This document shows positions 1 to 31,873 of a stretch of 64,000 bases of DNA, in pieces. Numbering within the stretch: position 1 is the first letter of the stretch; the number at the start of each line of letters is the position of its first letter. The DNA comes from an uncultured bacterium. GTDB lineage: Bacteria > Hydrothermota > Tepidihabitantia > SM23-42. Under the pieces are notes generated by a model. That model was not told the DNA's origin. It saw nothing but the letters and a program-made list of their open reading frames with translations, and searched no databases. The stretch lies in the NCBI GenBank assembly GCA_965603515.1, contig CBFDDH010000005.1, forward strand, positions 27,886 to 91,885. The letters are read 5' to 3'. The position numbers and the translations under genes are program-made.

Positions 1-2061
1 TTTTTCAATGGCGTGATTGCTGATTAGATATATGCCCTTTTTTTGGAAGAACTTCCTGATTTCCACAATAGATTTGCCTGAACGAACCATACGAACAATA
101 CTGGGATCGAATTTCAAAACTTCATATAGCCCTTCACGTCCAAAATACCCAGTATTATGACACTTCGCACAGCCGACTGGATGAGCGATACGCACCGGAA
201 TATCATTAGTAAAAGGCATGAGTATATTCCGTTCATTCGAAGAAATCTCCGTTACTTTCTTGCAGCATGAACAGAGTTTCTTGACCAATCTCTGCGCAAC
301 TACACAGATAACTGCATCTGCTATAACGCCGCTCTCAATGCCCAATCTTTCAAGTCGGAAAACAGCTGTCGTCGTATCAGTTGTATGCAGCGTCGTTAAA
401 GTAAGATGGCCTGTACTTGCAAAATCCATTGCCATTTTTGCAGAATATTGATCTCTAATCTCTCCAAGAAAGATTACATCCGGGTCCAATCTCACCACTG
501 ATTTAAGCAATGTCTTAAATGTTATACCAGCTTTTTCATTTACCTGCTGTTGATTTGCAAAAGGCATAAGATACTCAACCGGGTCTTCAATCGTCACAAG
601 ATTTCCTACCTTGCATTCTATGTGTGAGAGTAAACTATAAATCGTTGTAGTCTTGCCAGACCCTGTTGGTCCAACAACCAAAATCAGACCACGTGTTCGA
701 TTGATGACATCCATCATTGTATCAGCCTGTTCATTAGTCATCCCAAGCTCGTTCAATTTTTTTGGTTTGGCATACGGTTGCAGCATTCTTATTACGATAT
801 TCTCACCCTCTGGTGTTGATGCAGTAGCTAAACGGAGTTTATAATTCTTGTCGTCAATCACCGCTTCCAAGGCACCATCCTGGGGTCTTCGTCGCTCAGC
901 TATATCCATACCGCTAATTGCCTTGAAACGACCTATTAACATAAAGCCCATTTTCTTTTCCAGAGTAAACATATTTCTCATATCACCATCTATTCTAAAA
1001 CGAATAGTGCAATCGTTTTTCTTTAGCTCAATGTGTACATCACTTGCTCTTTCTGATGCAGCCGCGAATAGTAGTCTGTTTGCAATGCCAGAAGTCGATT
1101 GATCTTCAGTATCCAGATTGTAAGACGGAGTAGTAGTTTTTGGATCAACAGGCTCAACGAGCCCCTCTACTTCATTGGTACTGAAATCCTGAGATCGTAC
1201 TGTATCATCTTCGTCTTGATTAGTATGCAATATTGATTCAATATTTATTGGCGGAGTAATCGTAAGCCTCAGTCTTTCGTTTTGTGAGTAGAATCTCTCC
1301 AAAATATCAATGACTTCTAGATTAAAGGGGTTGCTCAATACAAAGGTACATTTTCTATCTTTTTGCTTTAATGCAACAATAAGATTCGATTTACAGAATG
1401 GAACGGGAAGTATACCCAGCTCAACATCATCTGGTTTGATCTTAGGTAAAAAAGGAAGTTTTAGATAATCTGCGATATACACCGACATGCTTGTATTATC
1501 AATACCGATTCCATGTGCTGTTGAATAGAGACTTGAATGGTGCATCATATCCAGTTTATATTGCTGTTCAGGCGATAGATTTAGTTTGTCAGACAGAAAT
1601 TCTTTGAATTGAATGAAATTAGATGAAGTAAGACTGACGTCTGACTTAACCGCATCTCCCCGGAAATCTTTCCATCGCAGGGCAGTTTTGAGATGATAAC
1701 GAACGTTTTCAAACAAGATGTCTTTCTTTATAGGCTTAACAAGATAACCCACCGCGCCGAGGGCGAATGCCTTTGTTCGATCTTTTTCCTTTTTTAAAGC
1801 AGTCACAAATACAACCGGAATGAAGGCGGTTTCTGATTTTTCCTGGAGTTTGTAGCAGAAGTCATAACCATCCATTTCCGGCATCATAATATCAAGCAGA
1901 ATAAGATCGGGCGTGACATCTCGGAGTATCTCCAAACCATGGAACCCACTTTCCGCAATCATAACATCATAACCTTCACCGCTCAATAAACTCTTGGTTA
2001 GCTTTAGTATATTACTGTCGTCGTCGACAACCAGAATAAGTGGTTTAGCTGAACTATTCAT
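1..2061 (-). CDS. REC (response-regulator receiver) domain fused to a GspE/PilB-family type II secretion / type IV pilus assembly ATPase. The C-terminus runs off the window start (3' partial). Not in the ORF track because no stop codon lies inside the window.
   Basis: Manual minus-strand translation from ATG (complement 2061..2059): MNSSAKPLILVVDDDSNILKLTKSLLSGEGYDVMIAESGFHGLEILRDVTPDLILLDIMMPEMDGYDF... (REC: DD pair, phospho-Asp in LLD, T and K downstream). Then a GspE N-domain-like segment. ATPase motifs: Walker A GPTGSGKTTT (~640-690), LVTIEDPVEY, Walker B DVIFLGEIRD, His-box TGHLTLTTLHT, C-terminal tetracysteine CSCC...CAKC zinc motif. Frame checked codon by codon; it is open from 2061 down to nt 1. 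Confidence 0.8.
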   Translation of the reverse strand, partial: MNSSAKPLILVVDDDSNILKLTKSLLSGEGYDVMIAESGFHGLEILRDVTPDLILLDIMMPEMDGYDFCYKLQEKSETAFIPVVFVTALKKEKDRTKAFALGAVGYLVKPIKKDILFENVRYHLKTALRWKDFRGDAVKSDVSLTSSNFIQFKEFLSDKLNLSPEQQYKLDMMHHSSLYSTAHGIGIDNTSMSVYIADYLKLPFLPKIKPDDVELGILPVPFCKSNLIVALKQKDRKCTFVLSNPFNLEVIDILERFYSQNERLRLTITPPINIESILHTNQDEDDTVRSQDFSTNEVEGLVEPVDPKTTTPSYNLDTEDQSTSGIANRLLFAAASERASDVHIELKKNDCTIRFRIDGDMRNMFTLEKKMGFMLIGRFKAISGMDIAERRRPQDGALEAVIDDKNYKLRLATASTPEGENIVIRMLQPYAKPKKLNELGMTNEQADTMMDVINRTRGLILVVGPTGSGKTTTIYSLLSHIECKVGNLVTIEDPVEYLMPFANQQQVNEKAGITFKTLLKSVVRLDPDVIFLGEIRDQYSAKMAMDFASTGHLTLTTLHTTDTTTAVFRLERLGIESGVIADAVICVVAQRLVKKLCSCCKKVTEISSNERNILMPFTNDIPVRIAHPVGCAKCHNTGYFGREGLYEVLKFDPSIVRMVRSGKSIVEIRKFFQKKGIYLISNHAIEK

Positions 2062-2371
2062 AAATGACCTCGATTCGTTCAAGATAATCCTTCAACTTAT
2101 CTACACACTTCCTTATCTGCTCTTCATTTCTTTCTTGTGCTGCTTGTTCAAGAAATTCGCCGATTTCACTTATCACATCAAATCCATATGCACCGCCAGA
2201 ACCACTCAAACCATGTCCCAATGTTTCGATTCTCACAAAATCATGATTCTCTAATAAAACTAAAATCACATCGACTTTGTTGTTGATGTCTACGAGATAA
2301 CCAGGAATCAGATCTTTTATCTCGGCTAAAGCATATACAATTATTCTATTACCATTTTTGTGGCTTAGCAT
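2054..2371 (-). CDS. Small putative Hpt (histidine phosphotransfer) domain protein
   Basis: 105 aa. The segment LGHGLSGSGGAYGFD resembles the Hpt phospho-His motif HxLKGSSxxxGA. Stop TAG 2054-2056 lies 2 nt before the REC-GspE ATG, and the upstream gene stops 1 nt before this ATG (translational coupling). Confidence 0.45.
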   Translation of the reverse strand: MLSHKNGNRIIVYALAEIKDLIPGYLVDINNKVDVILVLLENHDFVRIETLGHGLSGSGGAYGFDVISEIGEFLEQAAQERNEEQIRKCVDKLKDYLERIEVIYE

Positions 2372-2372
2372 A

Positions 2373-3059
2373 TCAATTTTGAGCTAATTGAGTTAATTCA
2401 TTCATATACTGTAAAAGCTCATTATACTTTTTTTTATACTCTAAGAACAAATCCTTATAGTTATTATCGTTTTCGTCATCCACCATCTCTCTTTCTTCAT
2501 CAGCGATCATCTTTTCAAGCGATGGTATAAATTCTTCTATTTCCTTGCCGTCATACTCAGTCTGTTTTTTCTGACTAGGTTCTAAGAATCCTTCTTCTTC
2601 AAGCCACTTGCGAGGATCGATGAGGTCCTGAGATTCTTCTTTTTGTAACCATATTTCCTTCGCTTTGTTGACATCAGCAATCACCGCGGGATAAAATCCT
2701 CTTACTTCAGATATATACAACTTCGGGAAATCAATATTTTTCTCATCGTACTTGATGAGTTTATACTGTTTAAAATATTTCTGAAATTCACTTTTCGCGC
2801 TTTCATCAGCCTCACTATACAGTCCTACTATTGGTGGAATATCAATATCGAGTTTCTGACAAAGTCTAAATAGTGTCCCCTGCATAATTATTTCAAGCAA
2901 CAGATTAATATTTGCTATAATTATGTTGAATCTATTTTTGAATCTACAAATCATCTCGAGTGTTTCAGAACGAGTCCCGATTGCTATTATCCGCTCCCTG
3001 CAGAGTAGATCGCATAATTTTTTTCTTATATCTTTATCCGGCTCGATTAGAAGAATCAC
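2373..3059 (-). CDS. Pseudo-receiver-like protein, paralog A (REC-like N-terminus lacking the canonical DD / phospho-Asp; acidic, coiled C-terminal half)
   Basis: 228 aa. N-terminus MILLIEPDKDIRKKLCDLL reads like REC beta1-alpha1, but with E-P-D in place of DD, and IIIANI where the phospho-Asp strand should be. About 55-60% identical to the 5529..6224 product (shared ...GTLFRLCQKL..IPPI...YPxVIADxNKAxExWL..EES...RKWLEEEGFLE). Confidence 0.5.
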   Translation of the reverse strand: MILLIEPDKDIRKKLCDLLCRERIIAIGTRSETLEMICRFKNRFNIIIANINLLLEIIMQGTLFRLCQKLDIDIPPIVGLYSEADESAKSEFQKYFKQYKLIKYDEKNIDFPKLYISEVRGFYPAVIADVNKAKEIWLQKEESQDLIDPRKWLEEEGFLEPSQKKQTEYDGKEIEEFIPSLEKMIADEEREMVDDENDNNYKDLFLEYKKKYNELLQYMNELTQLAQN

Positions 3060-3165
3060 ATATTATTATGAAATGAAAAGAATGATGTAGCAACCAAAGA
3101 GAATACGTATTTATCTCTAGGCGGTTCTACCCAAGGAGTGAAGATCCGTTAGTTGATAAGTGGAT

Positions 3166-3257
3166 GGGGTCAAATCTTGAATAGTGAATACATAGCCAGA
3201 ATTTAGATATTGCGAAGGAATAGAAAGTACGCTATTCACTATTCAAGATTTGACCCC
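3166..3257. repeat. Perfect 25-bp inverted repeat (GGGGTCAAATCTTGAATAGTGAATA ... TATTCACTATTCAAGATTTGACCCC) with a 42-bp spacer, in the divergent intergenic region
   Basis: Arms at 3166-3190 and 3233-3257 are exact reverse complements. Each arm contains TTGACC reading outward on its own strand. Confidence 0.85.
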
Positions 3258-3305
3258 AGTAACCCCCAGTAATTATACCTATGTGGGAATAAGCACTTTC
3301 CATCA

Positions 3306-3333
3306 TTGTCTTATATTAGTATGACCATATAAT
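3306..3333 (+). promoter_or_regulatory. Putative sigma70-type promoter (TTGTCT-N16-TATAAT) giving a leaderless or near-leaderless transcript for the REC gene
   Basis: -10 TATAAT at 3328-3333 ends 7 nt before ATG 3341. -35-like TTGTCT at 3306-3311. Confidence 0.35.
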
Positions 3334-3340
3334 TCAGTAA

Positions 3341-3700
3341 ATGAAAAAACGAATCTTGGTTTGTGACGATGAGGAATCGATCAGATTATTACTCAGTGAG
3401 GCGCTAAATGACACCTACGAAGTAATCGAAGCATCTGATGGCCGCGAGGCAGTGAAAATGATCACGAAAGAACCCTTTGATCTACTCATTACCGACATAA
3501 AGATGCCGAGGACACATGGTTTTGAGGCAATTGAACGTATCCGAGAAAGAAATAAATCAATACCCATCGTTATCTGCTCTGCTTACCGACTGATGAAAGA
3601 TGATGTTGTAGTAACTACCTCGGATGTGGCGGCTTTCTTTACGAAGCCGATCGACATGAAGGCACTTAAATCTAAAGTGCTTGAACTCATCGGTACGTAG
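3341..3700 (+). CDS. Single-domain CheY-like response regulator (REC)
   Basis: 119 aa. MKKRILVCDDEESIRLL (DD), LLITDIKMP (phospho-Asp), VICSAY, FFTKP (conserved K). Stop TAG directly abuts the next ATG. Confidence 0.85.
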   Translation: MKKRILVCDDEESIRLLLSEALNDTYEVIEASDGREAVKMITKEPFDLLITDIKMPRTHGFEAIERIRERNKSIPIVICSAYRLMKDDVVVTTSDVAAFFTKPIDMKALKSKVLELIGT

Positions 3701-4294
3701 ATGAAACCCCGCATTGGCGAGCTTCTCGTCAAGAACGGCATAATCACTGAAGCCCAACTAAAAGAGGCTCTTGTGCTCCAGAGAGAACAAGAAAAAAGAC
3801 TCGGTGAAATCCTTATTGAATTGGGTCACCTGTCTTCAAAAGACTTGGTCTGGATACTTAGTGAACAGGCTGACATACCGTTCGTAGAAATCCGACCTGA
3901 AATGTTAGATAAGAAGCTCATTAACGCTTTCCCGGAGAATATCCTCTATGATAATAGCATATTACCGCTTTACGAAACTGAGGACAAGATTTACGTCGCA
4001 TTAGGCAACCCTATTGATACAACAGCCACACAAGCAATCAAGCGCTTCACCACAAAAGAGGTGGTTACCTCAGGCACTGACCCTTATAAAATCGAAAAGT
4101 TGCTGAACAAATTTTTTCTATCTGAGCAAATGGAAGAAAGTCTAGGACAAGAGAAAATTGACAAAACAGCTGTTAAGATCGTGACCGAAAAGGCAACCAT
4201 TGAATTCATTGATGAGTTGGGTAAGGTAACGACAAAAAAAGCCCCTCTTGAGATTATCATGACTATTAAAAAGGAAGATGGAGATGCAGAATAA
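3701..4294 (+). CDS. Stand-alone GspE N-terminal / MshEN-type domain protein (putative c-di-GMP receptor)
   Basis: 197 aa. Two tandem 24-residue MshEN motifs: RIGELLVKNGIITEAQLKEALVLQ and RLGEILIELGHLSSKDLVWILSEQ. Both match RLGxx(L/V/I)(L/V/I)xxG(L/V/I)(L/V/I)xxxxLxxxLxxQ. These are followed by the T2SSE_N beta subdomain (ILPLYETEDKIYVALGNPIDTTATQAIKRFT). No ATPase domain. Confidence 0.7.
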   Translation: MKPRIGELLVKNGIITEAQLKEALVLQREQEKRLGEILIELGHLSSKDLVWILSEQADIPFVEIRPEMLDKKLINAFPENILYDNSILPLYETEDKIYVALGNPIDTTATQAIKRFTTKEVVTSGTDPYKIEKLLNKFFLSEQMEESLGQEKIDKTAVKIVTEKATIEFIDELGKVTTKKAPLEIIMTIKKEDGDAE

Positions 4295-5325
4295 TGGATG
4301 AAATGCAACAATTACTGCAACGGACGGTTGACATGAAAGCGAGCGATCTTCATATTAGTGCTGGCTCACCGGTCATGTTACGAGTCCGTGGCTCAATGAA
4401 AAATCTAAATGCAAAACCCATTAGCCAAGAAACTGCACAAAATCTAATAAACCAAATACTCACTAAGGAACAAATCACTACTCTCAAAAAAGATCATGAA
4501 ATCGACTTCTCCCTTGACCTTCCTGATACAGGACGATTTCGAGTAAATGTCTTTCATCAACGACAAGGACTTAGCGGGGTTTTCAGAAGCATACCACATG
4601 ATATGCCCGCAATAGAAGAACTTGGTCTGCCAAAAATAATTAAAGAACTAGTCGATTTGGACTGCGGGCTCATTCTCGTAACCGGACCTACCGGCAGCGG
4701 GAAATCTACCACGCTTGCCGCAATGATAGACTATATCAATAATAATAAAGATGGTCATATAATAACCATTGAAGATCCTATTGAATTCATTCACTCTTCA
4801 AAAAAATGCGTTGTCAATCAACGCGAGGTGGGAAGCAATACCCATTCATTTGCCGATGCCTTGAGGAGTGCTCTAAGAGAAGACCCTGACTACATATTGA
4901 TCGGTGAAATGCGGGACTTGGAGACAATCGCCCTCGCACTTACTGCGGCCGAAACAGGACACTTGGTCTTTGGAACTCTCCATACTTCGAGTGCACCAAA
5001 AACAATCACCCGAGTCATAGATGTCTTCCCAATGACACAACAAGACCAGATAACAACACAGCTTTCAGAATCGCTTCAGTGTGTAATCGCCCAAAAACTG
5101 TACCCACGAATGGACGAATCTGGGCGTATTGCAGCATTCGAGATAATGATTGCAACTCAGGCAGTGCGTAATCTTATTAGAGAGAAAAAGATATTTCAAA
5201 TCGAATCAATCATACAAACCGGACGCCAACTCGGCATGCAAAATATGGAACAGTCAAAAAGGAGACTTGTTTCAGAAGGTAAGCTCTCTCCTGAATTCCT
5301 GAAGGAACGGCTGAGTCTATATTGA
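4294..5325 (+). CDS. pilT: Type IV pilus retraction (twitching motility) ATPase PilT
   Basis: 343 aa. Walker A GPTGSGKSTT, Asp box ITIEDPIEF, Walker B DYILIGEMRD, His box TGHLVFGTLHT, and the PilT C-terminal motif AFEIMIATQAVRNLIRE. Start overlaps the upstream stop (TAATGG). Confidence 0.9.
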   Translation: MDEMQQLLQRTVDMKASDLHISAGSPVMLRVRGSMKNLNAKPISQETAQNLINQILTKEQITTLKKDHEIDFSLDLPDTGRFRVNVFHQRQGLSGVFRSIPHDMPAIEELGLPKIIKELVDLDCGLILVTGPTGSGKSTTLAAMIDYINNNKDGHIITIEDPIEFIHSSKKCVVNQREVGSNTHSFADALRSALREDPDYILIGEMRDLETIALALTAAETGHLVFGTLHTSSAPKTITRVIDVFPMTQQDQITTQLSESLQCVIAQKLYPRMDESGRIAAFEIMIATQAVRNLIREKKIFQIESIIQTGRQLGMQNMEQSKRRLVSEGKLSPEFLKERLSLY

Positions 5326-5436
5326 GCACGTGTAGTCCCATACAAAATAGTCAGTCAACTATAGCACCAACCCCTTTCTATTAGAATACAGGTATTAGAA
5401 TTGTTAGCATTCGTTAAGCAATCATTGCCAACGATA

Positions 5437-5468
5437 TCATTTTGTCAATTAGCAAAATGACAAAATGA
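5437..5468. promoter_or_regulatory. 11-bp perfect inverted repeat TCATTTTGTCA-N10-TGACAAAATGA (operator-like), followed by a tandem CAAAATGA
   Basis: 5437-5447 and 5458-5468 are reverse complements. The repeat lies about 23 bp upstream of a -35 box. Confidence 0.6.
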
Positions 5469-5490
5469 GATGGCGCTCAATTGTAGATCC

Positions 5491-5518
5491 TTGACAATCA
5501 AGATTCTGTTTCTATAAT
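5491..5518 (+). promoter_or_regulatory. sigma70-type promoter TTGACA-N16-TATAAT for pseudo-receiver paralog B, near-leaderless
   Basis: TTGACA 5491-5496, TATAAT 5513-5518, ATG at 5529. No Shine-Dalgarno sequence. Confidence 0.5.
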
Positions 5519-5528
5519 TGCCATACTT

Positions 5529-6224
5529 ATGATCCTTTTGATCGAACCAAATAAACGTATCAGAAAACGCCTTTGTGATCTTTTGAGTCGTGAAAGAATT
5601 CTCGCTATTGGTACTTATCCTGAGACATTGGAGATGATCGCAAAGTTTAAAAATAGAATAAATATTATTATAGCAAGTATTCGTATGTTTAAAGATATAC
5701 TTTTACGGGGAACGCTCTTTCGGCTCTGCCAGAAGCTCTATATAGAAATCCCTCCCATTCTGGTTTTTTACAGAAGGGGTGATGAGAAGATCAAGGAAGA
5801 ATTTGAGACGAACAAAGTACACTGTTCAATTATTAAGTTTGATGGTGAAGATACGAGTTTCCCCGAGCGATATATTGCGGCTATAAAAACCCTGTATCCA
5901 GAGGTCATCGCTGATATCAACAAGGCTACTGAGATGTGGTTAAAAGGCGAGGAGTCAGAAACACCGAAAGATCATCGAAAGTGGCTTGAAGAAGAAGGGT
6001 TCCTCGAGGCAATGGAGAATCTGAAGATTGGGAAATTGACCAGAGACGTAGAACAAATAATCCCGCTGATGAGGAAAATGTTGTCCGAGGAGAAAAAAGG
6101 ACCGAAAGAAAAAAAACAAAAAAAGAAACAAGAAGCTGATTACAAACGTATGTATCTTGAACTTAAACGAAAACATGATGAGCTTTTGAAGTATGTAAAG
6201 GAATTAGTCGATCTTTCAAAATAG
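5529..6224 (+). CDS. Pseudo-receiver-like protein, paralog B, with a Lys-rich tail (KKGPKEKKQKKKQ)
   Basis: 231 aa, paralog of 2373..3059. Shares the same non-canonical N-terminus MILLIEPNKRIRKRLCDLL. Confidence 0.5.
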   Translation: MILLIEPNKRIRKRLCDLLSRERILAIGTYPETLEMIAKFKNRINIIIASIRMFKDILLRGTLFRLCQKLYIEIPPILVFYRRGDEKIKEEFETNKVHCSIIKFDGEDTSFPERYIAAIKTLYPEVIADINKATEMWLKGEESETPKDHRKWLEEEGFLEAMENLKIGKLTRDVEQIIPLMRKMLSEEKKGPKEKKQKKKQEADYKRMYLELKRKHDELLKYVKELVDLSK

Positions 6225-6225
6225 A

Positions 6226-7767
6226 ATGTTTTCTGTTTTAATAGTAGTAATACTCTTCATCATCCCTCAAATTGTCACAGGACAAAATATATTTAAAGAT
6301 GTGCAAAATCGCTACCCGCGGGTGCGCCAAGCTCGAGAGAACTGTGAATACGATATTGACTCGCTTTTTCAAACGAGGGGCATTAACTATCCACCAGAAG
6401 AAATTTTAATAGTAGCTTATAAAAAAGAACGGCTTATTCACTTATGGGCACGCTCTGACACCAATAAAACTCTTCTTTTTATCAAACAATATCCCTTTAC
6501 TGCATTTTCCGGCACGCTCGGACCGAAACGTAAACAGGGTGATCTCCAGATACCTGAAAGCTTTTATTATATCAATCATTTTAATCCTTATTCCAACTTT
6601 CACTTATCCATGAAGATAAGCTATCCAAATCAATCAGATAGCATACTTGGTAAAAAAGGCAGTCTCGGCAATGAAATACGTATTCATGGAAGTTTTGTAA
6701 CTATCGGCTGTATTCCGATCGGCGATGAATCAATCGAAGAACTGTATATAATATGTGTTGATATGAAATCAAAAGGGCAACACAAGATACCGGTTTATGT
6801 CTTTCCAGGAAAGATGGACAAACAAAATTGGTCAGGATTAAAGCAAGTAGCCGGTCAGGATAGTATCCTGCTCAATTTCTGGCATAATTTGCGACAAGGC
6901 TATGATATCTTCACGGCAACACACCGAAAATTGAGTTATCGAGTTAACCTAAAAGGGCAGTATATTTACTCGTACGATCACTCACATTTAAATTCATTTC
7001 CGTGGCTCGATGTGCATAATGTCCAAAATTGCTTATTCAATAGGCTTGAACCACCCGCAGACTATGAACGGACATACTGTCCTCTCGGTTCTTTTGAAGA
7101 TTGGCTAAGACATTTACCTTTGAAACCAGGTAATCCACAGGTATACCTGTATAATGGGAATGAGAAATCCTATCAGAGTGGTCACTATGCAGTAGTCGAT
7201 ATTGACGTCGGGCAAGAAGATCTGCAGCAATGTGCCGATGCGATAATCAGACTTTATGCAGAATATCTGTTTTCAAAAAACTGTCTTGATAATATCATTT
7301 TTGATCTAACTAATGGTGATGCGGTTGGTTTCAGAAAATGGGTTTCAGGGTATCGACCATTAGTCAGTGGGAATACTGTAACCTGGCACAAACGTGCGGC
7401 TTCAGATTCTTCGTATGATACATTCCGTGCATATCTGAAATTCATTTTTGCATACGCTGGAACTTATTCGATAAGTCAGGAGACACAACGTATTGAAAAC
7501 CACCGTGATATGGTGATCGGTGATATATTTATCCAAGGCGGCTTTCCCGGCCACGCAGTCCTGGTTACTGATATGGCGACAAACCCCCGAACCGGTGAAA
7601 AAGTATTCTTGCTTAGCCAGAGTTATATGCCTGCCCAGGATATACATATTTTAAAAAATCTAAATGACCCGGATCTGAACCCCTGGTATAAACTGGATTT
7701 TGGCAATACCCTGCACACTCCAGAATGGACATTTGATACTGATGACTTAAAACGGATCACCCCTTGA
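6226..7767 (+). CDS. Secreted L,D-transpeptidase-like (YkuD-fold) protein with a large uncharacterised C-terminal domain
   Basis: 513 aa. N-terminal hydrophobic signal/anchor. GPKRKQGDLQIPESFYYI and IRIHGSFVTIGCIPI resemble the YkuD His/Cys catalytic core (HG[ST]...GC[IV]). Confidence 0.45.
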   Translation: MFSVLIVVILFIIPQIVTGQNIFKDVQNRYPRVRQARENCEYDIDSLFQTRGINYPPEEILIVAYKKERLIHLWARSDTNKTLLFIKQYPFTAFSGTLGPKRKQGDLQIPESFYYINHFNPYSNFHLSMKISYPNQSDSILGKKGSLGNEIRIHGSFVTIGCIPIGDESIEELYIICVDMKSKGQHKIPVYVFPGKMDKQNWSGLKQVAGQDSILLNFWHNLRQGYDIFTATHRKLSYRVNLKGQYIYSYDHSHLNSFPWLDVHNVQNCLFNRLEPPADYERTYCPLGSFEDWLRHLPLKPGNPQVYLYNGNEKSYQSGHYAVVDIDVGQEDLQQCADAIIRLYAEYLFSKNCLDNIIFDLTNGDAVGFRKWVSGYRPLVSGNTVTWHKRAASDSSYDTFRAYLKFIFAYAGTYSISQETQRIENHRDMVIGDIFIQGGFPGHAVLVTDMATNPRTGEKVFLLSQSYMPAQDIHILKNLNDPDLNPWYKLDFGNTLHTPEWTFDTDDLKRITP

Positions 7768-8549
7768 TGAAAAAACGCCAGTTGAATAAAGAACAGGATA
7801 CTCGTCGTTTATATAACGATCTTGCCTGGACCTGGCCTATTATAAGCCCACCCGAAGATTATATCGAAGAGGGAGAAAAATACAGAAGTCTGATAAAAAG
7901 ATATTCGAAGATACCAGTATCAACCCTGCTCAATCTTGGCTGCGGCGGTGGTCATGTTGACTGGGTGCTGAAAAAATATTTCAGGATCACAAGTATTGAT
8001 ATTAGTACAAATATGTTGAAACTTGCAAAAAAATTGAATCCAGATGTAATCTATAAAAAGGGCGATATGAGATCTATTAGATTAAAAAAAGCATTTGATG
8101 CGGTCTTGATCCTTGATTCAATCAACTATATGCTCACTAAAAAAGACCTGTCATCCGTATTTAAAACAGCTTACGAACATCTCAACCCAGGTGGCATGCT
8201 TTTGACTTTCGCAGAGGAGTATAATAAAATAGAACAGCACAAACTATCGTGGTCAACTCATAAAAAGGGTGATACTGAAATAACATTCATCGAGCATTAT
8301 TATGATTCAGACCCGACCGATACTACATTCGAATGCATTTTTGTTTACTTGATACGCAAAAACAAAAAACTGGACATTCAGACCGATCGCCATCTTGGTG
8401 GTATATTCAGTCTGAAGACCTGGCTTCAATTATTAGAAGAAATCGGGTTCAAAGTGAAGAAATTGGGGCTTGGACATTCATCTTTCCCAAAAGGGACTAC
8501 GATACCAACCTTTATTTGCACAAAACCTCTTCCAGCTTCAAAAAGCTAA
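7764..8549 (+). CDS. Class I SAM-dependent methyltransferase
   Basis: 261 aa. Motif I LNLGCGGGHVD, post-I SIDIS, motif II FDAVLILDS. 4-nt overlap (ATGA) with the upstream gene. Confidence 0.75.
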   Translation: MMKKRQLNKEQDTRRLYNDLAWTWPIISPPEDYIEEGEKYRSLIKRYSKIPVSTLLNLGCGGGHVDWVLKKYFRITSIDISTNMLKLAKKLNPDVIYKKGDMRSIRLKKAFDAVLILDSINYMLTKKDLSSVFKTAYEHLNPGGMLLTFAEEYNKIEQHKLSWSTHKKGDTEITFIEHYYDSDPTDTTFECIFVYLIRKNKKLDIQTDRHLGGIFSLKTWLQLLEEIGFKVKKLGLGHSSFPKGTTIPTFICTKPLPASKS

Positions 8550-8573
8550 CCCATAAACCATCTTCTTACATAC

Positions 8574-8602
8574 ATTGACATCGATGGCTTTTTTGTTAAA
8601 CT
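8574..8602 (+). promoter_or_regulatory. Possible promoter TTGACA-N17-TAAACT upstream of the A2M gene
   Basis: TTGACA 8574-8579. Weak -10 at 8597-8602. GGAGG RBS 8606-8610. ATG 8619. Confidence 0.3.
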
Positions 8603-8618
8603 ATTTGATGGAGGTAGT

Positions 8619-11600
8619 ATGAAAAGATCATTTATATTATTCATATCAATATTTACAGCATTCACATTATCATGTCAAAAAAAGAAAGCTTTTCAAGCTG
8701 GGTTTGAAATCCCGGAAGGACAAAAAAGAGACGTAGAAGTCCTCTATATAACACCGGAAGGCGGGACCGAAGGACTGAGTGAAGTAGGCGAAATACTCGT
8801 CTCCTTTAATCAGCCGATGGTTCCCCTCCAAGGCGTACCAGAATTTGAAAAGAGTGGACCACTTGAAATCAAACCGGAAATTAAAGGTAGATTCAGATGG
8901 CGCGGGACATCCACCGTATTTTTTATTCCGGATCAACCATTGGTCGGTGGAACCCAATACACATGCAAGGTTCCCAAAGGCACAAAATCCTTAACCGGAA
9001 CGCAGCTCAAAACAGACTACACCTGGCAGTTCACTACCGCACGACCACAGCTCAATACTTCGAACCCATATCACAATCAGAAATGGGTTGAGCTGGAGCA
9101 CAAAATATATCTTCTTTTCAATCAACCGATGTCACCGGGAAAAGTGAAATCCTTTATCAAGTTACTCGTGCGCGACGAAAAGAGTTTCGAAAAACCAGTT
9201 TCATTTAAAACACGATCCATGACTGACAAAGAGAAACAGGGGATCGGTGCCTACTGGAAATCAGAAAGAACGATCGTTATCAACCCAGACCAAGACCTGC
9301 CAATTGAAAGTGAGGTGATGATTAAATTGCTCGAGGGTTTACCCGGAGCTTCAGGTGACTATGGCATGGAACATGAACGAACCATAACCTTTCGAACCTT
9401 TAACTATTTTAGATTTGAGGGTCTTGATAATACTATACAAAACCCCCAGGAATCAGTAAGGTTCGAGTTCAGCAACCCCGTGGTATACCAGGATTTTATC
9501 AAACACATCAAATTTAACCCGGAAATAAAAATACCTGAGCATTATAAGAACTGGACACATTCCTCGACGCGACTCTATGTCTATGTAGACCTTAAACCCG
9601 ATACTAAATATCAAGTGTTTATTGACAAAGAACTGACTGACCGTTTCAACAATAAACTCGGTGAGGATATTGTCGCGACGTTCAAAACAACAGATTATGA
9701 ACCCCAGATCAAAATAGCTACTGGTCGCGGGATCGTTGAATCGTATTCAGCAAAGCGACATCCAATTACTGTTATCAATGTAAACCGGGTCGGTAAAAAA
9801 ATGGCGCTTTTGGAACGAAGTGAGATAATCCCCACGGTCCTTAGTAGTGGCGTATTTTATGGATGGCGCAAGTACAACCCGGTGTTTAATTATGACATTA
9901 ATGAAAAATGGAAAATCAATGGCGAAAGAAACAAACGGATCACGGTGCCACTTGAACTTAAGGATGTTCTACAGAACAAAGACGCTGGTTATGTTTTCTT
10001 TGAGATCGATGCATACAAAAAGCTCCGCTATGGGCGGCGATATTACCGAGGCTTACTCCAGATAACAAATATCGGCATTTCTGCTAAATTCTCGTCGGAA
10101 AATAATCTGGTATGGGTTACGACCTTGAAAGATGCCCAACCCCTCTACAATGCGCAAGTCGAATTACGTGACGATAAAAATCGCGTGCTCTGGCAAGGCA
10201 AAACTGACCAGGACGGTCTGGTCCAAACACCAGGGTGGAAACCATTAGGTCTAGTCCCCGAGAACGACTGGAACAAACCACGGATTTGGGTATTTGCCAG
10301 AAGCGGTAATGATGAAACATTTATTGTGTCAGATGAAGGCACTGGTGTTTATCCATATGAGTTTGGTATCTCATATGACTGGAGTCCTGAACCAGAGAAG
10401 TATCAAACTTATATCTTCACTGAGCGGGGTATCTACAAAAGCGGCGAAGATGTTTATATTAAAGGTATCATAAGAGAAAAACATAAGGGTACGTGGCGGA
10501 TATCCCGTAGTGTCAAAACCGTTGACCTCGAGATCTACAATTCGCGGGATGAACAGATATATAACAGGACAACCACTGTTTCAAAATATGGTTCCTTTGA
10601 CATCAAACTCCCTATTGCATCAGATGCTCCCACTGGTTGGTATGAAATAACTGCTGACCTACCTGGTGTTAAACCTAATTTCTACGGTTCATTCAGGGTC
10701 GAAGCTTACCGACCTGCACAATTCGAAGTAAAGGCACAGAGCGAAAAAGAAGAATACATCTTTGGCGATGAATTCGAGGGCGAAATAAAGGGGACTTATC
10801 TCTACGGCGGGCCGATGGCCGGAGAGAGTGCCGAGTGGATAATAACCCTTGATCATTCATATTATACACCACCTGGTCATAAAGGCTATCGATTTGGTCC
10901 ATCTTATTGGTACGATGATGAGGATTGGGAATTCGAAGGGGTTATTGGATCAGATGCTGGTGAACTTGACCAATATGGCAAAATGAAGCTACAAAAGAAA
11001 CTCGCTCAGGAAGATATACGAAGAACAATGCTACTTACTCTTGAAGGATCAGTGACTGCCGAAAATCGACAAACCCTTTCAGGACGAACAAATTGCCTGA
11101 TCCATTGTGGTGAGTATTATATCGGAATAAAACCCCAGAAAACGTTCATCGAAATAAAAAAATCAAGCCAGTTCGAGTTTATCACAACAAGACCCGATGG
11201 GGAATTGACCGTCAAGAAAAACATTAGCGTCGAGATCATCCGAAGGGAATGGATAAGTGTACGCAAAGCTGGTGTTGAAGGTAGATTCGAATGGATTACT
11301 GAGAAGAAAGACAGTATTGTCAGCAAATTCAAAGTGAAGACCAGCGAAAGTCCAGTCGCTAAGTCCTTTACGCCTGAAAGAACTGGCTTTTACATAATCA
11401 AAGCTCAGGGTAAGGATTCCCGTAACAATACCATCATTACGAGTACCTACTTTTACGTAACTGGTGCTGGCTATATATCTTGGCGAAGAAACGACGACGA
11501 CCACGTGGAGATTATCCCGGATGAAGAAAAGTACAAACCTGGCGATGTCGCAAAAATACTCGTTAAGTCGCCCTATGAAAAAACCCTTGCCTTAGTTACG

Positions 11601-14294
11601 ATCGAACGTGAGTTCATTATTGACAGATTTACTCAGGAGCTGATCGGATCGAGTGATCTCATTGAAATTCCGATTAATGAAAATTACTTACCCAATGTCT
11701 ACGTCTCGGTTATCCTCATCCAAGGTAGAAAAGGATTTGATAAATTTGATGAAGCAGGTAAGGATATTGGCAAACCATCTTTTAAAATTGGTTACACAAA
11801 TCTTAAGGTAGACCCTGGGACAAAACATCTTGATATTACAATTACTACTAACAAAGATGAGTATAGGCCTCAAGATTCAGTGATGGTGAAACTGAAGGTC
11901 GCTGACCATAAAGGTCAGGGGGTTAAATCAGAGATCATCCTCGCAGTAGTAGACGTTGGGGTACTGAACCTTATTGGTTTTGAAACACCTGACCCATTCC
12001 CCATGTTCTATGGCTCCAGACAACTCTCTGTACAAACTGCCGAGAGCCGACTGCATATTATAGGTCAAAGAACTTATGATGAAAAAGGCGAGAACCGTGG
12101 CGGCGGCGGAACAGCGGCGGCGCCCTTTGCCTACCGCTCTGAATTCTTGACAACCGCATATTATAATGCTCGTATCTATACGAATTCAAAAGGTGAAGCA
12201 GTAATACGCTTCAAATTACCCGATAACCTCACGACCTTCCGGCTCATGGCAGTCGGACACACTAAGGCCTCTTGTTTTGGTTCAAGTGATTCAAAGATCC
12301 GGGTGAAAAAACCGCTTTTGTTGCTTGAGGCATTACCCCGATTTGTCCGGCTCGGCGATGAATTCGAAGCCGGTATTGTTGTCCACAATAATACGAACGT
12401 TTCTGGTAACGTGGTGGTCGAAGCCTCGGCTGATAATATCACACTCGTTAATGAAAGCAAAGAAACGCTGGAAATCCCTGACGGTCAAGAAAAAGAAATA
12501 CGCTTTGAGTACCGCGCTCACCAGGTCGGTCAAGCAACCTTCAGATTCAAAGTGACCATGGGACAGGAATCAGATGGGGTTGAATTAAAAATACCCGTGA
12601 TCTCACCGCGTCTGACCGAGGCTGTTGCATTGTATAGCCAGACCATAGACAAAATCGCTGAAGCAATCACTGTACCAAAAGACATATACCCAGATGTTGG
12701 CTATATTGAGTTTACAACTTCGTCATCAGCGCTTGTCGGACTTGAAGGTGGTGTTGAATACCTTATTAAGTATCCGTATGAGTGTCTTGAGCAGAAGACA
12801 TCGAGGATTCTACCGTTCATCCTCGCTGAAGATTTAATCAATTCTTTTGACCTTTCTGAGCTGAAGGGCAAAGACCTTAGAAAAGAAGTCCAGAATACTC
12901 TAAAAGAATTCAAAGATTTTCAACATTACAATGGTGGCTTCAAGTTCTGGCCGGACTCCTGGTATCCATCACCATGGTTAACTGCTTATGCTGTAAATGT
13001 GCTCGCAAAAGCAAAAAAGAAAGGCTATTACGTTGACATGAACATGCTCAATAGAGCAATAGACTACTTGAAAGATGTACTACGCCGCAGCGATGTTGAT
13101 TGGGAATATCCCTATAATAAAAATGTTCAACTCACCACCAAATGCTTTATCCTGTATTCACTCGTGCTATGGGATGTCTACGACCACGGCTATATGTCCA
13201 GACTCTTTGACAAACGTGACCAGATCTCACTTTTTGGCAAAACCTTGTTGCTAAAATCAGCCCATATCTACGGAAATTCATATTACAGGAAAGAACTACG
13301 GAGGATGATCCTCAACAAAATACATATGGCATCGACTACTGCTCATTTTGAAGAACCGGATGCGATCGGCATGGCTTGGATATGGCACTCCAATGTCAGA
13401 ACTACTGCGCTTATTCTCCAGGCATTGCTCGAAACTGGCGGTGAATTTGCCAATGCGGAAAAGATAATCAAGTGGTTAGTAACCGAAAGGAAAATCGGTC
13501 GCTGGCGTTCAACTCAAGAAAATATCTATGTCTTTGATGCATTCAATACATATTTTAGAATCTACGAAAAACAAACCCCCGATTTCATGGCGACTGTCTA
13601 TCTTGAGAATAAGGAAATCCTAAAAGAAATCTTCAAAGGCAGGGAACTACAGATACGAAGAAAAGAAGTGGGATTAGGTGATCTGACAAAAGGCAAAAAA
13701 CTGCCGGTTAATATTGAAAAAAGTGGTGACGGACGACTATACTATGGTCTGCGCATGCTTTACGCCCCCACGCGCGAACTCAAACCACGGGATGAAGGTC
13801 TCGCAGTATTCAAAGTGGTGGAGCCGCTCGCTGAAGGACTCTCTGGTGATGAATTGAGCGCCGGTAAAATCTACAAGGTAACGCTCAGTATTGTTACGCC
13901 CCAAGAACGTAATTTCGTAGTAGTCGATGATCCGCTTCCAGCTGGTGTTGAGGTCATAAATACATCATTTGATACTGAAAGCAAACAACTCCTCAAAATG
14001 ATGGATGGTAACATGGACTACTATGATGAATATTATGTAGAAGATTATTACGGCGGTGAGTATGATGACTACTACTATTACTATCCATCATGGGGTACAT
14101 TCGACCACTGGGAAATCTATGATGAAAAAGTTCTTTTGTTTGCTGATGCCTTAAGAGCAGGCGAGCATACCTTCTCTTATCTCGTACGTGCAATGACATT
14201 TGGGAACTTTACAATGCCACCAACCAAAGCCGAGGAGATGTATACACCTGAGGTTTTTGGGTATAACAGGCAACGAAGACTGGTGGTCAAGTAG
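8619..14294 (+). CDS. Bacterial alpha-2-macroglobulin family lipoprotein (ECAM/YfhM-like) with an intact thioester motif
   Basis: 1891 aa. Signal peptide plus Cys (MKRSFILFISIFTAFTLSC). Thioester YPYECLEQKTSR (bacterial CLEQ form) around nt 12770-12800. Gly/Ala-rich putative bait region GENRGGGGTAAAPFAY about 230 aa upstream of the thioester. Many MG-domain-like beta-rich repeats. Unusual Tyr/Asp/Glu-rich C-terminal insert. Confidence 0.8.
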   Translation: MKRSFILFISIFTAFTLSCQKKKAFQAGFEIPEGQKRDVEVLYITPEGGTEGLSEVGEILVSFNQPMVPLQGVPEFEKSGPLEIKPEIKGRFRWRGTSTVFFIPDQPLVGGTQYTCKVPKGTKSLTGTQLKTDYTWQFTTARPQLNTSNPYHNQKWVELEHKIYLLFNQPMSPGKVKSFIKLLVRDEKSFEKPVSFKTRSMTDKEKQGIGAYWKSERTIVINPDQDLPIESEVMIKLLEGLPGASGDYGMEHERTITFRTFNYFRFEGLDNTIQNPQESVRFEFSNPVVYQDFIKHIKFNPEIKIPEHYKNWTHSSTRLYVYVDLKPDTKYQVFIDKELTDRFNNKLGEDIVATFKTTDYEPQIKIATGRGIVESYSAKRHPITVINVNRVGKKMALLERSEIIPTVLSSGVFYGWRKYNPVFNYDINEKWKINGERNKRITVPLELKDVLQNKDAGYVFFEIDAYKKLRYGRRYYRGLLQITNIGISAKFSSENNLVWVTTLKDAQPLYNAQVELRDDKNRVLWQGKTDQDGLVQTPGWKPLGLVPENDWNKPRIWVFARSGNDETFIVSDEGTGVYPYEFGISYDWSPEPEKYQTYIFTERGIYKSGEDVYIKGIIREKHKGTWRISRSVKTVDLEIYNSRDEQIYNRTTTVSKYGSFDIKLPIASDAPTGWYEITADLPGVKPNFYGSFRVEAYRPAQFEVKAQSEKEEYIFGDEFEGEIKGTYLYGGPMAGESAEWIITLDHSYYTPPGHKGYRFGPSYWYDDEDWEFEGVIGSDAGELDQYGKMKLQKKLAQEDIRRTMLLTLEGSVTAENRQTLSGRTNCLIHCGEYYIGIKPQKTFIEIKKSSQFEFITTRPDGELTVKKNISVEIIRREWISVRKAGVEGRFEWITEKKDSIVSKFKVKTSESPVAKSFTPERTGFYIIKAQGKDSRNNTIITSTYFYVTGAGYISWRRNDDDHVEIIPDEEKYKPGDVAKILVKSPYEKTLALVTIEREFIIDRFTQELIGSSDLIEIPINENYLPNVYVSVILIQGRKGFDKFDEAGKDIGKPSFKIGYTNLKVDPGTKHLDITITTNKDEYRPQDSVMVKLKVADHKGQGVKSEIILAVVDVGVLNLIGFETPDPFPMFYGSRQLSVQTAESRLHIIGQRTYDEKGENRGGGGTAAAPFAYRSEFLTTAYYNARIYTNSKGEAVIRFKLPDNLTTFRLMAVGHTKASCFGSSDSKIRVKKPLLLLEALPRFVRLGDEFEAGIVVHNNTNVSGNVVVEASADNITLVNESKETLEIPDGQEKEIRFEYRAHQVGQATFRFKVTMGQESDGVELKIPVISPRLTEAVALYSQTIDKIAEAITVPKDIYPDVGYIEFTTSSSALVGLEGGVEYLIKYPYECLEQKTSRILPFILAEDLINSFDLSELKGKDLRKEVQNTLKEFKDFQHYNGGFKFWPDSWYPSPWLTAYAVNVLAKAKKKGYYVDMNMLNRAIDYLKDVLRRSDVDWEYPYNKNVQLTTKCFILYSLVLWDVYDHGYMSRLFDKRDQISLFGKTLLLKSAHIYGNSYYRKELRRMILNKIHMASTTAHFEEPDAIGMAWIWHSNVRTTALILQALLETGGEFANAEKIIKWLVTERKIGRWRSTQENIYVFDAFNTYFRIYEKQTPDFMATVYLENKEILKEIFKGRELQIRRKEVGLGDLTKGKKLPVNIEKSGDGRLYYGLRMLYAPTRELKPRDEGLAVFKVVEPLAEGLSGDELSAGKIYKVTLSIVTPQERNFVVVDDPLPAGVEVINTSFDTESKQLLKMMDGNMDYYDEYYVEDYYGGEYDDYYYYYPSWGTFDHWEIYDEKVLLFADALRAGEHTFSYLVRAMTFGNFTMPPTKAEEMYTPEVFGYNRQRRLVVK

Positions 14295-25866: not shown

Positions 25867-26424
25867 TTATTGTGGATCCTTTTGTTTTTTTAGAAGTTCA
25901 AGACCAAAATTATAGCCGTGTTTAAAAGCCTTTATGTTTAAATCCAGAGCTTTTTCAGGAACTGAGCCAGGCAAAGCCTTTTCCATGGCTTCGCATGTCA
26001 CTATCCCGGTTATCGCAGTGAAGAACCCCAACATAACAACATTAGCCACAATTTTCTTGCCGAGCTGTTCAGCAAAACGCGTTGCCGGAATAAGATGGAC
26101 CTTAATATTCCCCCGGGGTGACTTGTGCTTCACTAAATTTTCGTCAACGAGTAATATACCGTTTTCTTTGAGTTCCGGTTCGAACTTATCATAACCCTCC
26201 TGGGACATGACAACCAAAACATCAGAATTAGTGACATATGGATATAGTACTTTGGTTTCTGATACCACGAGCTGAGAGCTGCAAGCACCACCCCTTGCTT
26301 CCGGGCCAAAGGATTGACTCATTGTACCATATTTGTTATCATAAAGCGAAGCTGCCTTACCGACAATTATCCCGGATCTTATAATACCTTGACCACCGTA
26401 ACCGGCGAATCTAATCTCCGCCAT
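25867..26424 (-). CDS. 2-oxoacid:ferredoxin oxidoreductase gamma subunit
   Basis: Likely start MAEIRFAGYGGQGIIRSGIIVGKAA (GGAGG 5 nt upstream), not the longer track ORF. Gamma/PorC-like fold. Confidence 0.7.
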   Translation of the reverse strand: MAEIRFAGYGGQGIIRSGIIVGKAASLYDNKYGTMSQSFGPEARGGACSSQLVVSETKVLYPYVTNSDVLVVMSQEGYDKFEPELKENGILLVDENLVKHKSPRGNIKVHLIPATRFAEQLGKKIVANVVMLGFFTAITGIVTCEAMEKALPGSVPEKALDLNIKAFKHGYNFGLELLKKQKDPQ

Positions 26425-31153: not shown

Positions 31154-31819
31154 TTATTTCTGTTTCTCGGCATGGTGTTTAATAACACGCGCTTGAGCGA
31201 TATATATGACATCTTCGCAAATATTCGTTGCCAAATCGGCAATGCGTTCAAGATTCTTGGCAACCAAGAGAAGTGGTATGGCCGAACCAATTTTATCTGG
31301 CTGTTCAAGCATGTAAGTAAGCAGTATCCTCATTGTCTCATCCCTCATTTCATCCACCACGTTATCTCTTTCACAGACTTGCTGAGCCATTTCCGCATCA
31401 TTGTTCATAAAACTCTTGACGCTGTCATTGAGCATCTTTTTTACCTCAACGACCATTGACCAGATATTACTTACCGGCTTGATACGCGGTTGTTCAATCA
31501 AAAAAGCGACTGAACCGGTAATATTCACCGCATGATCACCCATTCTTTCCAAATCATTGTTCATCTTAATGACCCCGATCAAGAATCTTAAATCAGTACC
31601 TACTGGCTGGTGGCGTGCAATAAGTTCGACGCACTGATCCTCAATAGCAATCTCGAAACGATCGATTCTATGATCGATTTCTTTGACTTCCGACGCCATC
31701 TTGAGGTCTCTATTCTTAAGCGCTTCCAGCGCTTTGGTAATCGATTCGTCAACCATTGAGGCCATTTCTAAAAGGTTCTTTTTCACCTTTTGCAGTTCTT
31801 CATCAAAATGGCGATCCAT
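31154..31819 (-). CDS. phoU: Phosphate transport system regulator PhoU
   Basis: 221 aa, two PhoU repeats (…DxxID…). Confidence 0.85.
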   Translation of the reverse strand: MDRHFDEELQKVKKNLLEMASMVDESITKALEALKNRDLKMASEVKEIDHRIDRFEIAIEDQCVELIARHQPVGTDLRFLIGVIKMNNDLERMGDHAVNITGSVAFLIEQPRIKPVSNIWSMVVEVKKMLNDSVKSFMNNDAEMAQQVCERDNVVDEMRDETMRILLTYMLEQPDKIGSAIPLLLVAKNLERIADLATNICEDVIYIAQARVIKHHAEKQK

Positions 31820-31873
31820 TATACCCCCTTACTTTTTAGCCATTAGCAATTAGCCACTGGCTATCAGCAAAAC

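Follow-up and report, generated by a model that had tools for sequence, protein, structure and literature searches.

Gene content at the left edge of the window

We examined a contiguous stretch of 64,000 nucleotides (nt), hereafter called the window, from an uncultured bacterium (GTDB lineage Hydrothermota; Tepidihabitantia; SM23-42; GenBank assembly GCA_965603515.1, contig CBFDDH010000005.1, positions 27,886 to 91,885 of the forward strand). Its left edge carries a real and intact gene for an ATPase of the GspE/PilB type that is fused at its N terminus to a receiver (REC) domain, and this gene is the main subject of the present analysis. As an earlier note made from the sequence alone had claimed, the minus strand is open from nt 2061 to nt 1, and translation gives 687 codons that begin with an ATG at 2061. 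On the upstream side of this frame, the nearest in-frame stop is at 2094 and the sole alternative start in between is a TTG at 2082; the N terminus, MNSSAKPLILVVDDD, lines up with the N termini of homologues in an alignment. The features of the gene are as follows, with their evidence in parentheses.

1..2061, minus strand: codons 1-687 of a 715-amino acid (aa) REC-MshEN-T2SSE ATPase (open frame, identical full gene in contig L001, Pfam)
1687..2040, minus strand: REC domain, residues 8-125 (PF00072, conservation, AlphaFold2 (AF2) model)
2017-2025, 1891-1893, 1801-1803 and 1732-1737, minus strand: REC residues D13-D15, D57, T87 and K109-P110, respectively
1228..1626, minus strand: degenerate MshEN domain, residues 146-278 (Pfam, AF2 secondary structure, NF053729 negative)
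1102..1224, minus strand: acidic disordered interdomain linker, residues 280-320 (predicted local distance difference test (pLDDT) 23-39; poorly conserved in alignments)
1..1095, minus strand: N2 and C-terminal ATPase domains, residues 323-687 (PF00437, EpsE 1p9r, Foldseek, motifs)
643-672, 571-594, 451-486, 382-414 and 160-273: ATPase motifs, namely Walker A, Asp box, Walker B with catalytic Glu, His box and tetracysteine, respectively

The gene is absent from the list of open reading frames (ORFs) supplied with the window because its frame runs off the sequence, and the list leaves out ORFs of this kind. The earlier note had placed the missing stop codon outside the window, and it lies there, 84 nt past the edge, with the 28 final codons before it. 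These were recovered from a 37.9-kb contig, L001 (ENA ERZ25073479 NODE_165), which was located through a look-up of the neighbouring Hpt protein. It is identical to the window across all 2061 nt, reaches the stop and carries the complete gene at L001:9946-12093, with a full product of 715 aa. A second, independent assembly, L002 (Logan SRR31055114), holds the 715-aa gene intact with 36 nt differences. Since both contigs carry the intact gene, the objection that re-sequencing might expose a frameshift or a stop fails.

The ORF list does contain three plus-strand ORFs here (218-451, 653-844 and 848-1102), none of which matched a Pfam family. In a 61%-identical orthologue, the antisense open stretches lie at other positions and have other lengths. 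These plus-strand ORFs are best read as antisense artefacts, as had been proposed before.

Domain architecture and fold of the ATPase

Pfam profiles match the product in three places: Response_reg (PF00072) at residues 9-120 (96.8 bits versus a cut-off of 30.2), MshEN / T2SSE_N1 (PF05157) at residues 205-285 (36.7 bits versus 23.1) and T2SSE (PF00437) at residues 325-677 (348.2 bits versus 24.9). The first of these matches, which covers most of the N-terminal ~120 aa, bears out the CheY-like REC that the earlier note had recognized, and so do the residues of the domain. The acidic pocket D13-D14-D15, the phospho-acceptor position D57, T87 and K109-P110 are all present, completing the expected DD...D...T...K pattern. 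In an alignment of 55 homologues, no substitution occurs at D13, D57, K109 or P110, and D14 and T87 are kept in at least 90% of sequences. The REC is thus equipped with the full set of residues for aspartate phosphorylation.

The core carries a Walker A motif (GPTGSGKTTT), an Asp box (TIEDPVEY), a Walker B motif with catalytic Glu (DPDVIFLGEIRD), a His box (TGHLTLTTLHT) and a zinc-type tetracysteine (C597/C600/C631/C634), all of which lie inside the window and are invariant in the same 55-sequence alignment. Read from its motifs, the ATPase core is catalytically complete and keeps the zinc-binding tetracysteine, and the previous description of a complete secretion-ATPase core with a tetracysteine zinc motif is thereby upheld.

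The AF2 model has a mean pLDDT of 78.5. Its REC domain shows a (beta-alpha)5 order (strands, E; helices, H) of E8-12/H16-28/E32-36/H39-46/E53-57/H65-74/E83-87/H95-101/E103-108/H113-133, with pLDDT values mostly of 65-92 that are lowest near residues 90-100. A disordered segment (residues 135-143) is followed by a four-helix bundle (146-200), an alpha/beta N1-like subdomain (205-278) and a second disordered segment (280-320), after which come the N2 and C-terminal domains.

By sequence, the best solved relatives are V. cholerae EpsE (PDB 1p9r, 4.7e-77), T. thermophilus PilF and Geobacter PilB. A Foldseek search of the PDB is likewise led by GspE, PilF and PilB (E 1e-40 to 1e-34, target TM-scores up to 0.83), with PilT at about 1e-22, so that the extension ATPases EpsE, PilF and PilB outrank PilT in both sequence and fold matches. 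The top NCBIfam matches are GspE (best), PilB, TfpB and ComGA, and no TadA model appears among the best 25. Neither equivalog profile accepts the protein, which reaches 381.8 bits on the GspE model TIGR02533 (cut-off 630.25) and 366.1 bits on the PilB model TIGR02538 (cut-off 675.65). The tetracysteine favours a placement with GspE/PilB over TadA. On this profile and motif evidence, the protein is classified as an extension-type ATPase that belongs to neither the canonical GspE nor the canonical PilB subfamily.

An Hpt gene linked to the ATPase gene

Two genes on the minus strand precede the ATPase gene and form a cassette with it.

2054..2371, minus strand: Hpt phosphotransfer protein, 105 aa (PF01627, 26.6 bits versus a cut-off of 24.6)
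2373..3059, minus strand: 228-aa pseudo-receiver, first gene of the 228-Hpt-ATPase cassette (AF2, Foldseek, no family match)

The stop codon of the Hpt gene overlaps the ATG of the ATPase gene by 8 nt, and by this layout the Hpt gene is translationally coupled to the ATPase. We compared eight loci at which members of the family reside (window/L001, L087, L090, L091, L092, L095, L096 and L097). Hpt is found directly before the ATPase in six of them, and the overlap with the ATPase start measures 8-14 nt in the five loci that were aligned. At L096, a 108-aa gene of Hpt-like size and position, for which there is no Pfam record, overlaps the ATPase start, and at L097 Hpt and a hybrid kinase form a single protein encoded directly downstream of the ATPase. 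The five aligned Hpt proteins are orthologues and conserve the motif GH-x-[LM]-x-GSGG-x-YGF, including its His.

Other signalling genes are common at these loci. Sensor kinases (hybrid or PAS/GAF) adjoin the ATPase in six of the eight, and genes for GGDEF, HD-GYP or EAL proteins are frequent neighbours. Genes for H-NOX, a hybrid histidine kinase, Hpt and the ATPase occur in a row at L090 (WOR-3) and L092; at L095, a PAS kinase and a REC-GGDEF gene lie upstream in place of the H-NOX and hybrid kinase genes. Because Hpt is linked to the ATPase at all eight loci, a His-Asp phosphorelay that ends on the ATPase is a well-supported prediction from gene organization.

The 228-aa protein encoded first in the cassette has no Pfam or NCBIfam match. 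Its AF2 model contains a confident (beta-alpha)5 N-terminal domain (pLDDT ~90) and C-terminal coiled-coil-like helices, and its top Foldseek matches in the PDB are almost all receiver domains. Two nearly invariant residues, E6 and N50, occupy the sites expected for the acidic-pocket Asp and the phospho-Asp (D57). Because these residues replace the acidic pocket and the phospho-Asp, the protein is assigned as a pseudo-receiver that is predicted not to be phosphorylatable. A paralogue is encoded nearby by a 231-aa gene (5529-6224, plus strand; 49% identity, E 5e-78). The family to which both belong comprises 79 proteins, carries no Pfam domain and has only WOR-3 among the sources of its named members.

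This genuine pseudo-receiver paralogue pair, together with the lack of an adjoining cognate hybrid kinase in this genome, brings up the idea that the REC of the ATPase is likewise a structural or pseudo-receiver module that acts by protein contacts without phosphorylation. There is precedent for non-phosphorylatable REC domains that regulate type IV pilus proteins, such as FimX (PMC11656802). We nevertheless judge this explanation to be improbable, given that D13, D14, D57, T87 and K109 are kept in the ATPase and conserved in its family, and that the Hpt with its conserved His is both coupled to the gene here and linked to it in eight of eight loci.

Loss of the c-di-GMP motifs in the fused MshEN domain

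In MshE and PilB, cyclic di-GMP (c-di-GMP) input is received through the MshEN domain (PMC5013675), and receptors of the MshE type are defined by two tandem 24-residue RLGxx(L/V/I)(L/V/I)xxG...LxxxLxxQ motifs. A positive control for these motifs is provided by the window itself, in an operon that diverges from the ATPase cassette.

3341..3700, plus strand: stand-alone REC, 119 aa, first gene of the divergent operon (PF00072, 89.4 bits)
3701..4294, plus strand: stand-alone MshEN protein, 197 aa, with both c-di-GMP motifs intact (NF053729)
4294..5325, plus strand: retraction-type ATPase of the PilT/PilU family, 343 aa (TIGR01420, 477.4 bits versus a cut-off of 319.1)

The 197-aa protein scores 64.6 bits (cut-off 38) on the c-di-GMP-motif model NF053729, and its intact motifs read RIGELLVKNGIITEAQLKEALVLQ and RLGEILIELGHLSSKDLVWILSEQ. 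Residues 125-325 of the ATPase gave no match to this model at E<=10. The fused MshEN domain is only weakly homologous to the adjacent stand-alone protein (E 0.002), and at the aligned positions of the second motif the Arg, Gly and Gln are replaced in the ATPase. From these comparisons, the MshEN-type N1 domain of the ATPase has lost the c-di-GMP motif, and c-di-GMP binding by the ATPase, which had been entertained, was dropped from consideration on the same grounds. Because the fused domain is without the motif, the sensory role of c-di-GMP in MshE/PilB seems to have passed to the REC in this protein.

The three abutting genes of the divergent operon are arranged head-to-head with the ATPase cassette, and the PilT gene lies 2.2 kb away from the ATPase gene. 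The operon repeats the domain order of the fused protein (REC, MshEN, ATPase), split into three genes and with a retraction-type ATPase last.

Family size and the single-REC form

The earlier note regarded REC-ATPase fusions of this family as uncommon, a view that the database searches contradict. A word-indexed homologue search returned 7672 matches, and REC and T2SSE occur together in each of the best 120, which are 49-91% identical to the query over its full length. When these 120 were classified with hidden Markov models built from our own alignment, 116 proved to be REC-MshEN-core-REC proteins and four (P0001, P0002, P0003 and P0014) had a single REC; the two-REC form is about 850 aa long and the single-REC form about 715 aa. 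When the family-specific linker (residues 125-325) was searched exhaustively against 1.84 billion representatives at 50% identity, 196 clusters matched at E<=1e-3, of which 113 reached E<=1e-10, and the match almost always started at residue 125-150 of the hit. Within the best 150 of these clusters, 80 have an N-terminal REC and the core. A second REC closes 31 of these 80 and is missing from the other 49, among which 26 are full-length single-REC clusters. A scan of reference genomes was swamped by the generic REC peptide pattern and brought up mostly response regulators unrelated to the family; its two full-length relatives were L007 (Alloalcanivorax, 38%) and L009 (Paceibacterota, 33%).

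The exact window protein is already present in NCBI and ENA, and members of the family carry public labels such as ‘response regulator’, ‘ATPase, T2SS/T4P/T4SS family’, ‘Flp pilus assembly complex ATPase component TadA’ and ‘PilB-like protein/DNA-binding response regulator’. With the fusion in all 120 best homologues and the family-specific linker in at least 196 clusters at 50% identity, the REC fusion is a minority architecture among secretion ATPases, yet it is neither rare nor new to databases. The window gene is a further, single-REC member of a catalogued, widespread and experimentally unstudied family.

The two-REC homologues, represented by an 853-aa WOR-3 protein (HEC77907.1 / P0005) and by proteins from metagenome-assembled genomes of Desulfobacterota, are 49-57% identical over the full window product and share both the REC-MshEN-ATPase layout and an Hpt gene that overlaps the start. 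They differ in their second, C-terminal REC and often in an upstream H-NOX gene with a hybrid kinase gene and a downstream zinc-ribbon/transmembrane gene with a pilin-like gene, all of which are absent in the window. The downstream pair is present in three of the eight loci (L090, L092 and L095), where a zinc-ribbon/transmembrane protein of ~170-183 aa is encoded directly after the ATPase and is followed by a prepilin-type (N_methyl) protein. The two-REC operons at these three loci (L090:6984-13648, L092:6937-13588 and L095:2289-10927) may be gas- or redox-sensing minimal pilus modules.

The missing C-terminal REC could also indicate that the window gene is a decaying remnant, that is, a two-REC operon truncated by the insertion of a Y1 (IS200-like) transposase with loss of the C-terminal REC and the pilin genes. 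Such a history would agree with the second REC of 116 of the 120 closest homologues, with the lack of pilin-like genes downstream and with a 333-aa Y1_Tnp gene (L001:12079-13080) that lies past window position 1, is convergent with the ATPase gene and overlaps its 3' end by 15 nt. This gene, for an IS200-like or REP-associated tyrosine transposase, is found in both strains (L001 and L002) and is absent from the orthologous locus L087. There, the cassette of the 228-aa protein, Hpt and ATPase (a 62%-identical orthologue) is kept without the transposase, which rules out a recent truncation. More generally, 714-aa orthologues (62% and 58% identity) end alike with no transposase nearby, the wider family includes 26 clusters of full-length single-REC proteins, and the frame of the window gene is intact with all catalytic residues kept. 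The explanation by pseudogene formation or transposase truncation was rejected on the strength of the single-REC orthologues that have no transposase; it is largely refuted and the least credible of those that we considered.

Comparison with known systems

The window ATPase has the same N2/C-terminal core, Walker A and B motifs, Asp and His boxes and tetracysteine as the MshE/PilB proteins (V. cholerae MshE, M. xanthus and Geobacter PilB; PMC5013675), which likewise place a regulatory sensor module N-terminal to an MshEN-type domain. PilF and PilB are its best fold matches, with target TM-scores of 0.81-0.83. It differs from MshE/PilB in that its predicted input is a phosphorylatable REC, in that the two 24-residue c-di-GMP motifs are lost and in that no pil genes are adjacent. 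GspE/EpsE (PDB 1p9r, 4pht) supplies the best PDB sequence match and the best NCBIfam profile, and both proteins have the zinc tetracysteine and an N1-like alpha/beta subdomain. However, the window ATPase stays below the GspE cut-off and has no gspC-M genes, whereas canonical GspE is without an N-terminal REC.

Receiver phosphorylation controls type IV pilus (T4P) motor ATPases through the trans-acting receivers PilG/PilH of P. aeruginosa (PMC11656802), the PATAN-REC proteins PixG/PilG of Synechocystis (10.1101/2021.06.11.447907) and DrdR of X. campestris (PMC13507683). The logic is the same, but the window receiver is covalently fused to the ATPase and is probably fed by Hpt rather than by a CheA-type kinase. 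A 2024 review of PilB regulation treats only trans-acting regulators, i.e., c-di-GMP, PilZ/FimX, PilG/PilH and phage inhibitors (PMC11656802), and stand-alone receivers that contact PilB/PilT are described from Synechocystis (10.1101/2021.06.11.447907) and Xanthomonas (DrdR; PMC13507683). Fusions of REC with MshEN have already been recognized by Wang et al., who noted MshEN with REC and cited Bdellovibrio Bd2402 (PMC5013675). In Bd2402, the REC is also fused N-terminally to an MshEN-type module, but this protein lacks an ATPase domain, and its c-di-GMP site is still functional, with a dissociation constant (KD) of 0.4 uM (PMC5013675 supplement).

A probable phosphorelay-controlled ATPase and its proposed output

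Taken as a whole, these observations are best explained by a response-regulator-type ATPase of the GspE/PilB superfamily that is controlled by a phosphorelay and is probably a filament motor, to which we assign a rough probability of 0.65. A sensor kinase would phosphorylate a receiver, from which the phosphoryl group would pass to Hpt and then to D57 of the ATPase in a His-Asp-His-Asp relay. The phosphorylated REC might then alter hexamer assembly, ATP turnover or motor docking, such that phospho-input would replace the c-di-GMP input of MshE/PilB. Candidates in this genome are the stand-alone REC encoded at 3341-3700, as the intermediate receiver, and one of the nearby PAS kinases, as the sensor; in relatives, the relay kinase would be the adjacent hybrid kinase, sometimes together with H-NOX. 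The motor would probably assemble a type IV pilus-like or pseudopilus filament. This last and weaker step is proposed because of the extension-type core, the pilin-like neighbours of some relatives and the adjoining PilT operon.

The earlier note had read the fusion as direct phospho-control of pilus or pseudopilus assembly. Phospho-control has become more plausible with the coupled Hpt and its family-wide linkage, whereas the filament output is left unproven by the genes nearby and by the failed GspE and PilB cut-offs. PilC/GspF (T2SSF), PilMNO, secretin, prepilin peptidase and pilin genes are all lacking in the 64-kb window and in 10 kb beyond it, there are no gspC-M genes in the window, and no PilC/GspF, PilMNO, secretin or prepilin peptidase gene occurs within 7-10 kb at any of the eight family loci. 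A six-frame search of the window for the prepilin signature G-F-T-L-I-E returned a single chance match inside an oxidoreductase. Further points concern the single-REC subfamily (window and L087), which has neither a pilin-like gene nor a hybrid kinase gene adjacent to it. The gene that directly precedes Hpt encodes a predicted non-phosphorylatable pseudo-receiver, and the adjacency to PilT is not kept in L087. In addition, a literature search, outside of which most subscription journals fell, gave no functional study of a REC-fused GspE/PilB ATPase and no paper on the family. With the exception of the signature search and the gspC-M result, which we report as plain negatives, these points weigh against a phosphorelay-controlled filament motor.

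Many of the same facts suit a different proposal, in which the protein is a phosphorelay-controlled NTPase that serves as a signalling or regulatory switch rather than as a filament motor and might, for example, control exopolysaccharide through nucleotide-dependent conformations. No platform, pilin or secretin gene is found in ~74 kb around the window gene, platform and secretin genes are likewise missing within 7-10 kb at the seven other loci, signalling genes (GGDEF, HD-GYP, EAL, PAS kinases) dominate the neighbourhoods, and the equivalog cut-offs of both motor families are failed. However, the family keeps every motor motif and the characteristic zinc site of extension ATPases without variation, pilin-like and membrane-protein genes follow immediately downstream in three of the eight loci, and a PilT gene adjoins here. 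Pilus machinery genes are frequently dispersed in genomes. We regard a pure signalling role as rather unlikely, albeit the most serious competitor of the phosphorelay-controlled motor.

A more elaborate version of the motor proposal can be offered as speculation. A relay from a hybrid kinase (with H-NOX in some lineages) through Hpt to the REC-ATPase(-REC) protein might gate a minimal type IV pilus-like motor that has its own pilin-like and zinc-ribbon membrane partners and no PilC nearby, and in the present organism extension would be phospho-controlled and retraction c-di-GMP-controlled. We regard this version as rather unlikely.

Other features of the neighbourhood and the window

Downstream of the divergent operon, a perfect sigma-70 consensus promoter (TTGACA-16-TATAAT, 12/12) is present at 5491-5518 (plus strand), 11 nt upstream of the 231-aa gene. 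A general scan for promoters and terminators gave site counts that were not above shuffled expectation, and the sole result of an Rfam scan of positions 1-9000 was a sub-threshold chance match to a microRNA. The 231-aa type of paralogue is normally paired with DUF4846 independently of any ATPase (L093 and L094). Membership of this pair in the PilT operon was considered and rejected, given that it occurs without PilT in L093 and L094 and that the consensus promoter precedes the 231-aa gene; the promoter points to joint transcription of the 231-aa gene and DUF4846, separately from PilT. A DUF4846 protein with a weak YkuD-like N-terminal region is encoded near the REC-ATPase both in the window (6226-7767, plus strand) and at the WOR-3 locus (L090:13748-15256), a proximity that might stem from synteny kept within WOR-3 and not from a link in function. 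On the other side of the ATPase gene, beyond Y1_Tnp on L001, are genes for a PAS histidine kinase, a sigma-54 response regulator and a REC-PAS-GGDEF-REC-HD-GYP protein.

The remaining window is devoted to housekeeping functions, which include alpha2-macroglobulin, ROK kinase, Hdr/Mvh-type oxidoreductases, 2-oxoacid:ferredoxin oxidoreductases, Pst/PhoU, UvrA, proteins sorted by the type IX secretion system (T9SS), TatC and PurH. Features of note are listed below.

8619-14294, plus strand: bacterial alpha-2-macroglobulin of 1891 aa (Big_5, MG domains, bait region, TED, bMG10); a ROK-family kinase gene in convergent orientation comes next, and the same order is found in L094
15858-30649, minus strand: large anaerobic redox cluster with two FlpD/MvhD-domain proteins, HdrB/C-like CCG and Fer4 proteins, an oxidoreductase fusion of 1405 aa (Fer4_20/Pyr_redox_2 + FAD + Fer4) and, one after the other, two subunit sets of 2-oxoacid:ferredoxin oxidoreductase
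25867-26598 and 26411-27196: ORFs that overlap by 188 nt, where the mechanically called start is probably too far upstream
31154-35837, minus strand: complete phosphate-uptake operon PstS-PstC-PstA-PstB-PstB-PhoU, with two tandem PstB ATPase genes
40212-45509, plus strand: two adjacent secreted proteins (497 aa and 1264 aa) with BNR/sortilin-like repeats and a C-terminal Por_Secre_tail (T9SS sorting)
50691-50765, plus strand: tRNA-Ala(GGC), the sole tRNA in the window
52368-52874, plus strand: stand-alone 168-aa HNH endonuclease gene, ~1.6 kb downstream of the tRNA

An exact-protein look-up of the 1405-aa ORF found no match, and its start is probably called differently elsewhere. Because of the C-terminal Por_Secre_tail domains, the organism is expected to use a type IX secretion system, in line with an FCB-group/WOR-3 origin. 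Relatives of the window's UvrA that carry an organism name (74-80% identity) come without exception from candidate division WOR-3, to which we assign the uncultivated source bacterium.

Implications

For annotation, the ATPase gene should be called on the full contig, and the names GspE, PilB and TadA need qualification when they are applied to it. The family is abundant in lineages of anaerobic sediment and the subsurface, such as WOR-3 and Desulfobacterota. The motors of type IV pili and of type II secretion have known trans-acting regulators, namely c-di-GMP (through MshEN), PilZ/FimX and stand-alone response regulators such as PilG/PilH, PixG and DrdR. If the proposed mechanism is true, the covalent fusion of a receiver to the ATPase, with an Hpt of its own as phosphate donor, would connect two-component signalling to a pilus or secretion motor in the most direct way. 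Such a fusion would also offer a simple in vitro system for learning how an N-terminal regulatory domain switches a hexamer of the PilB type.

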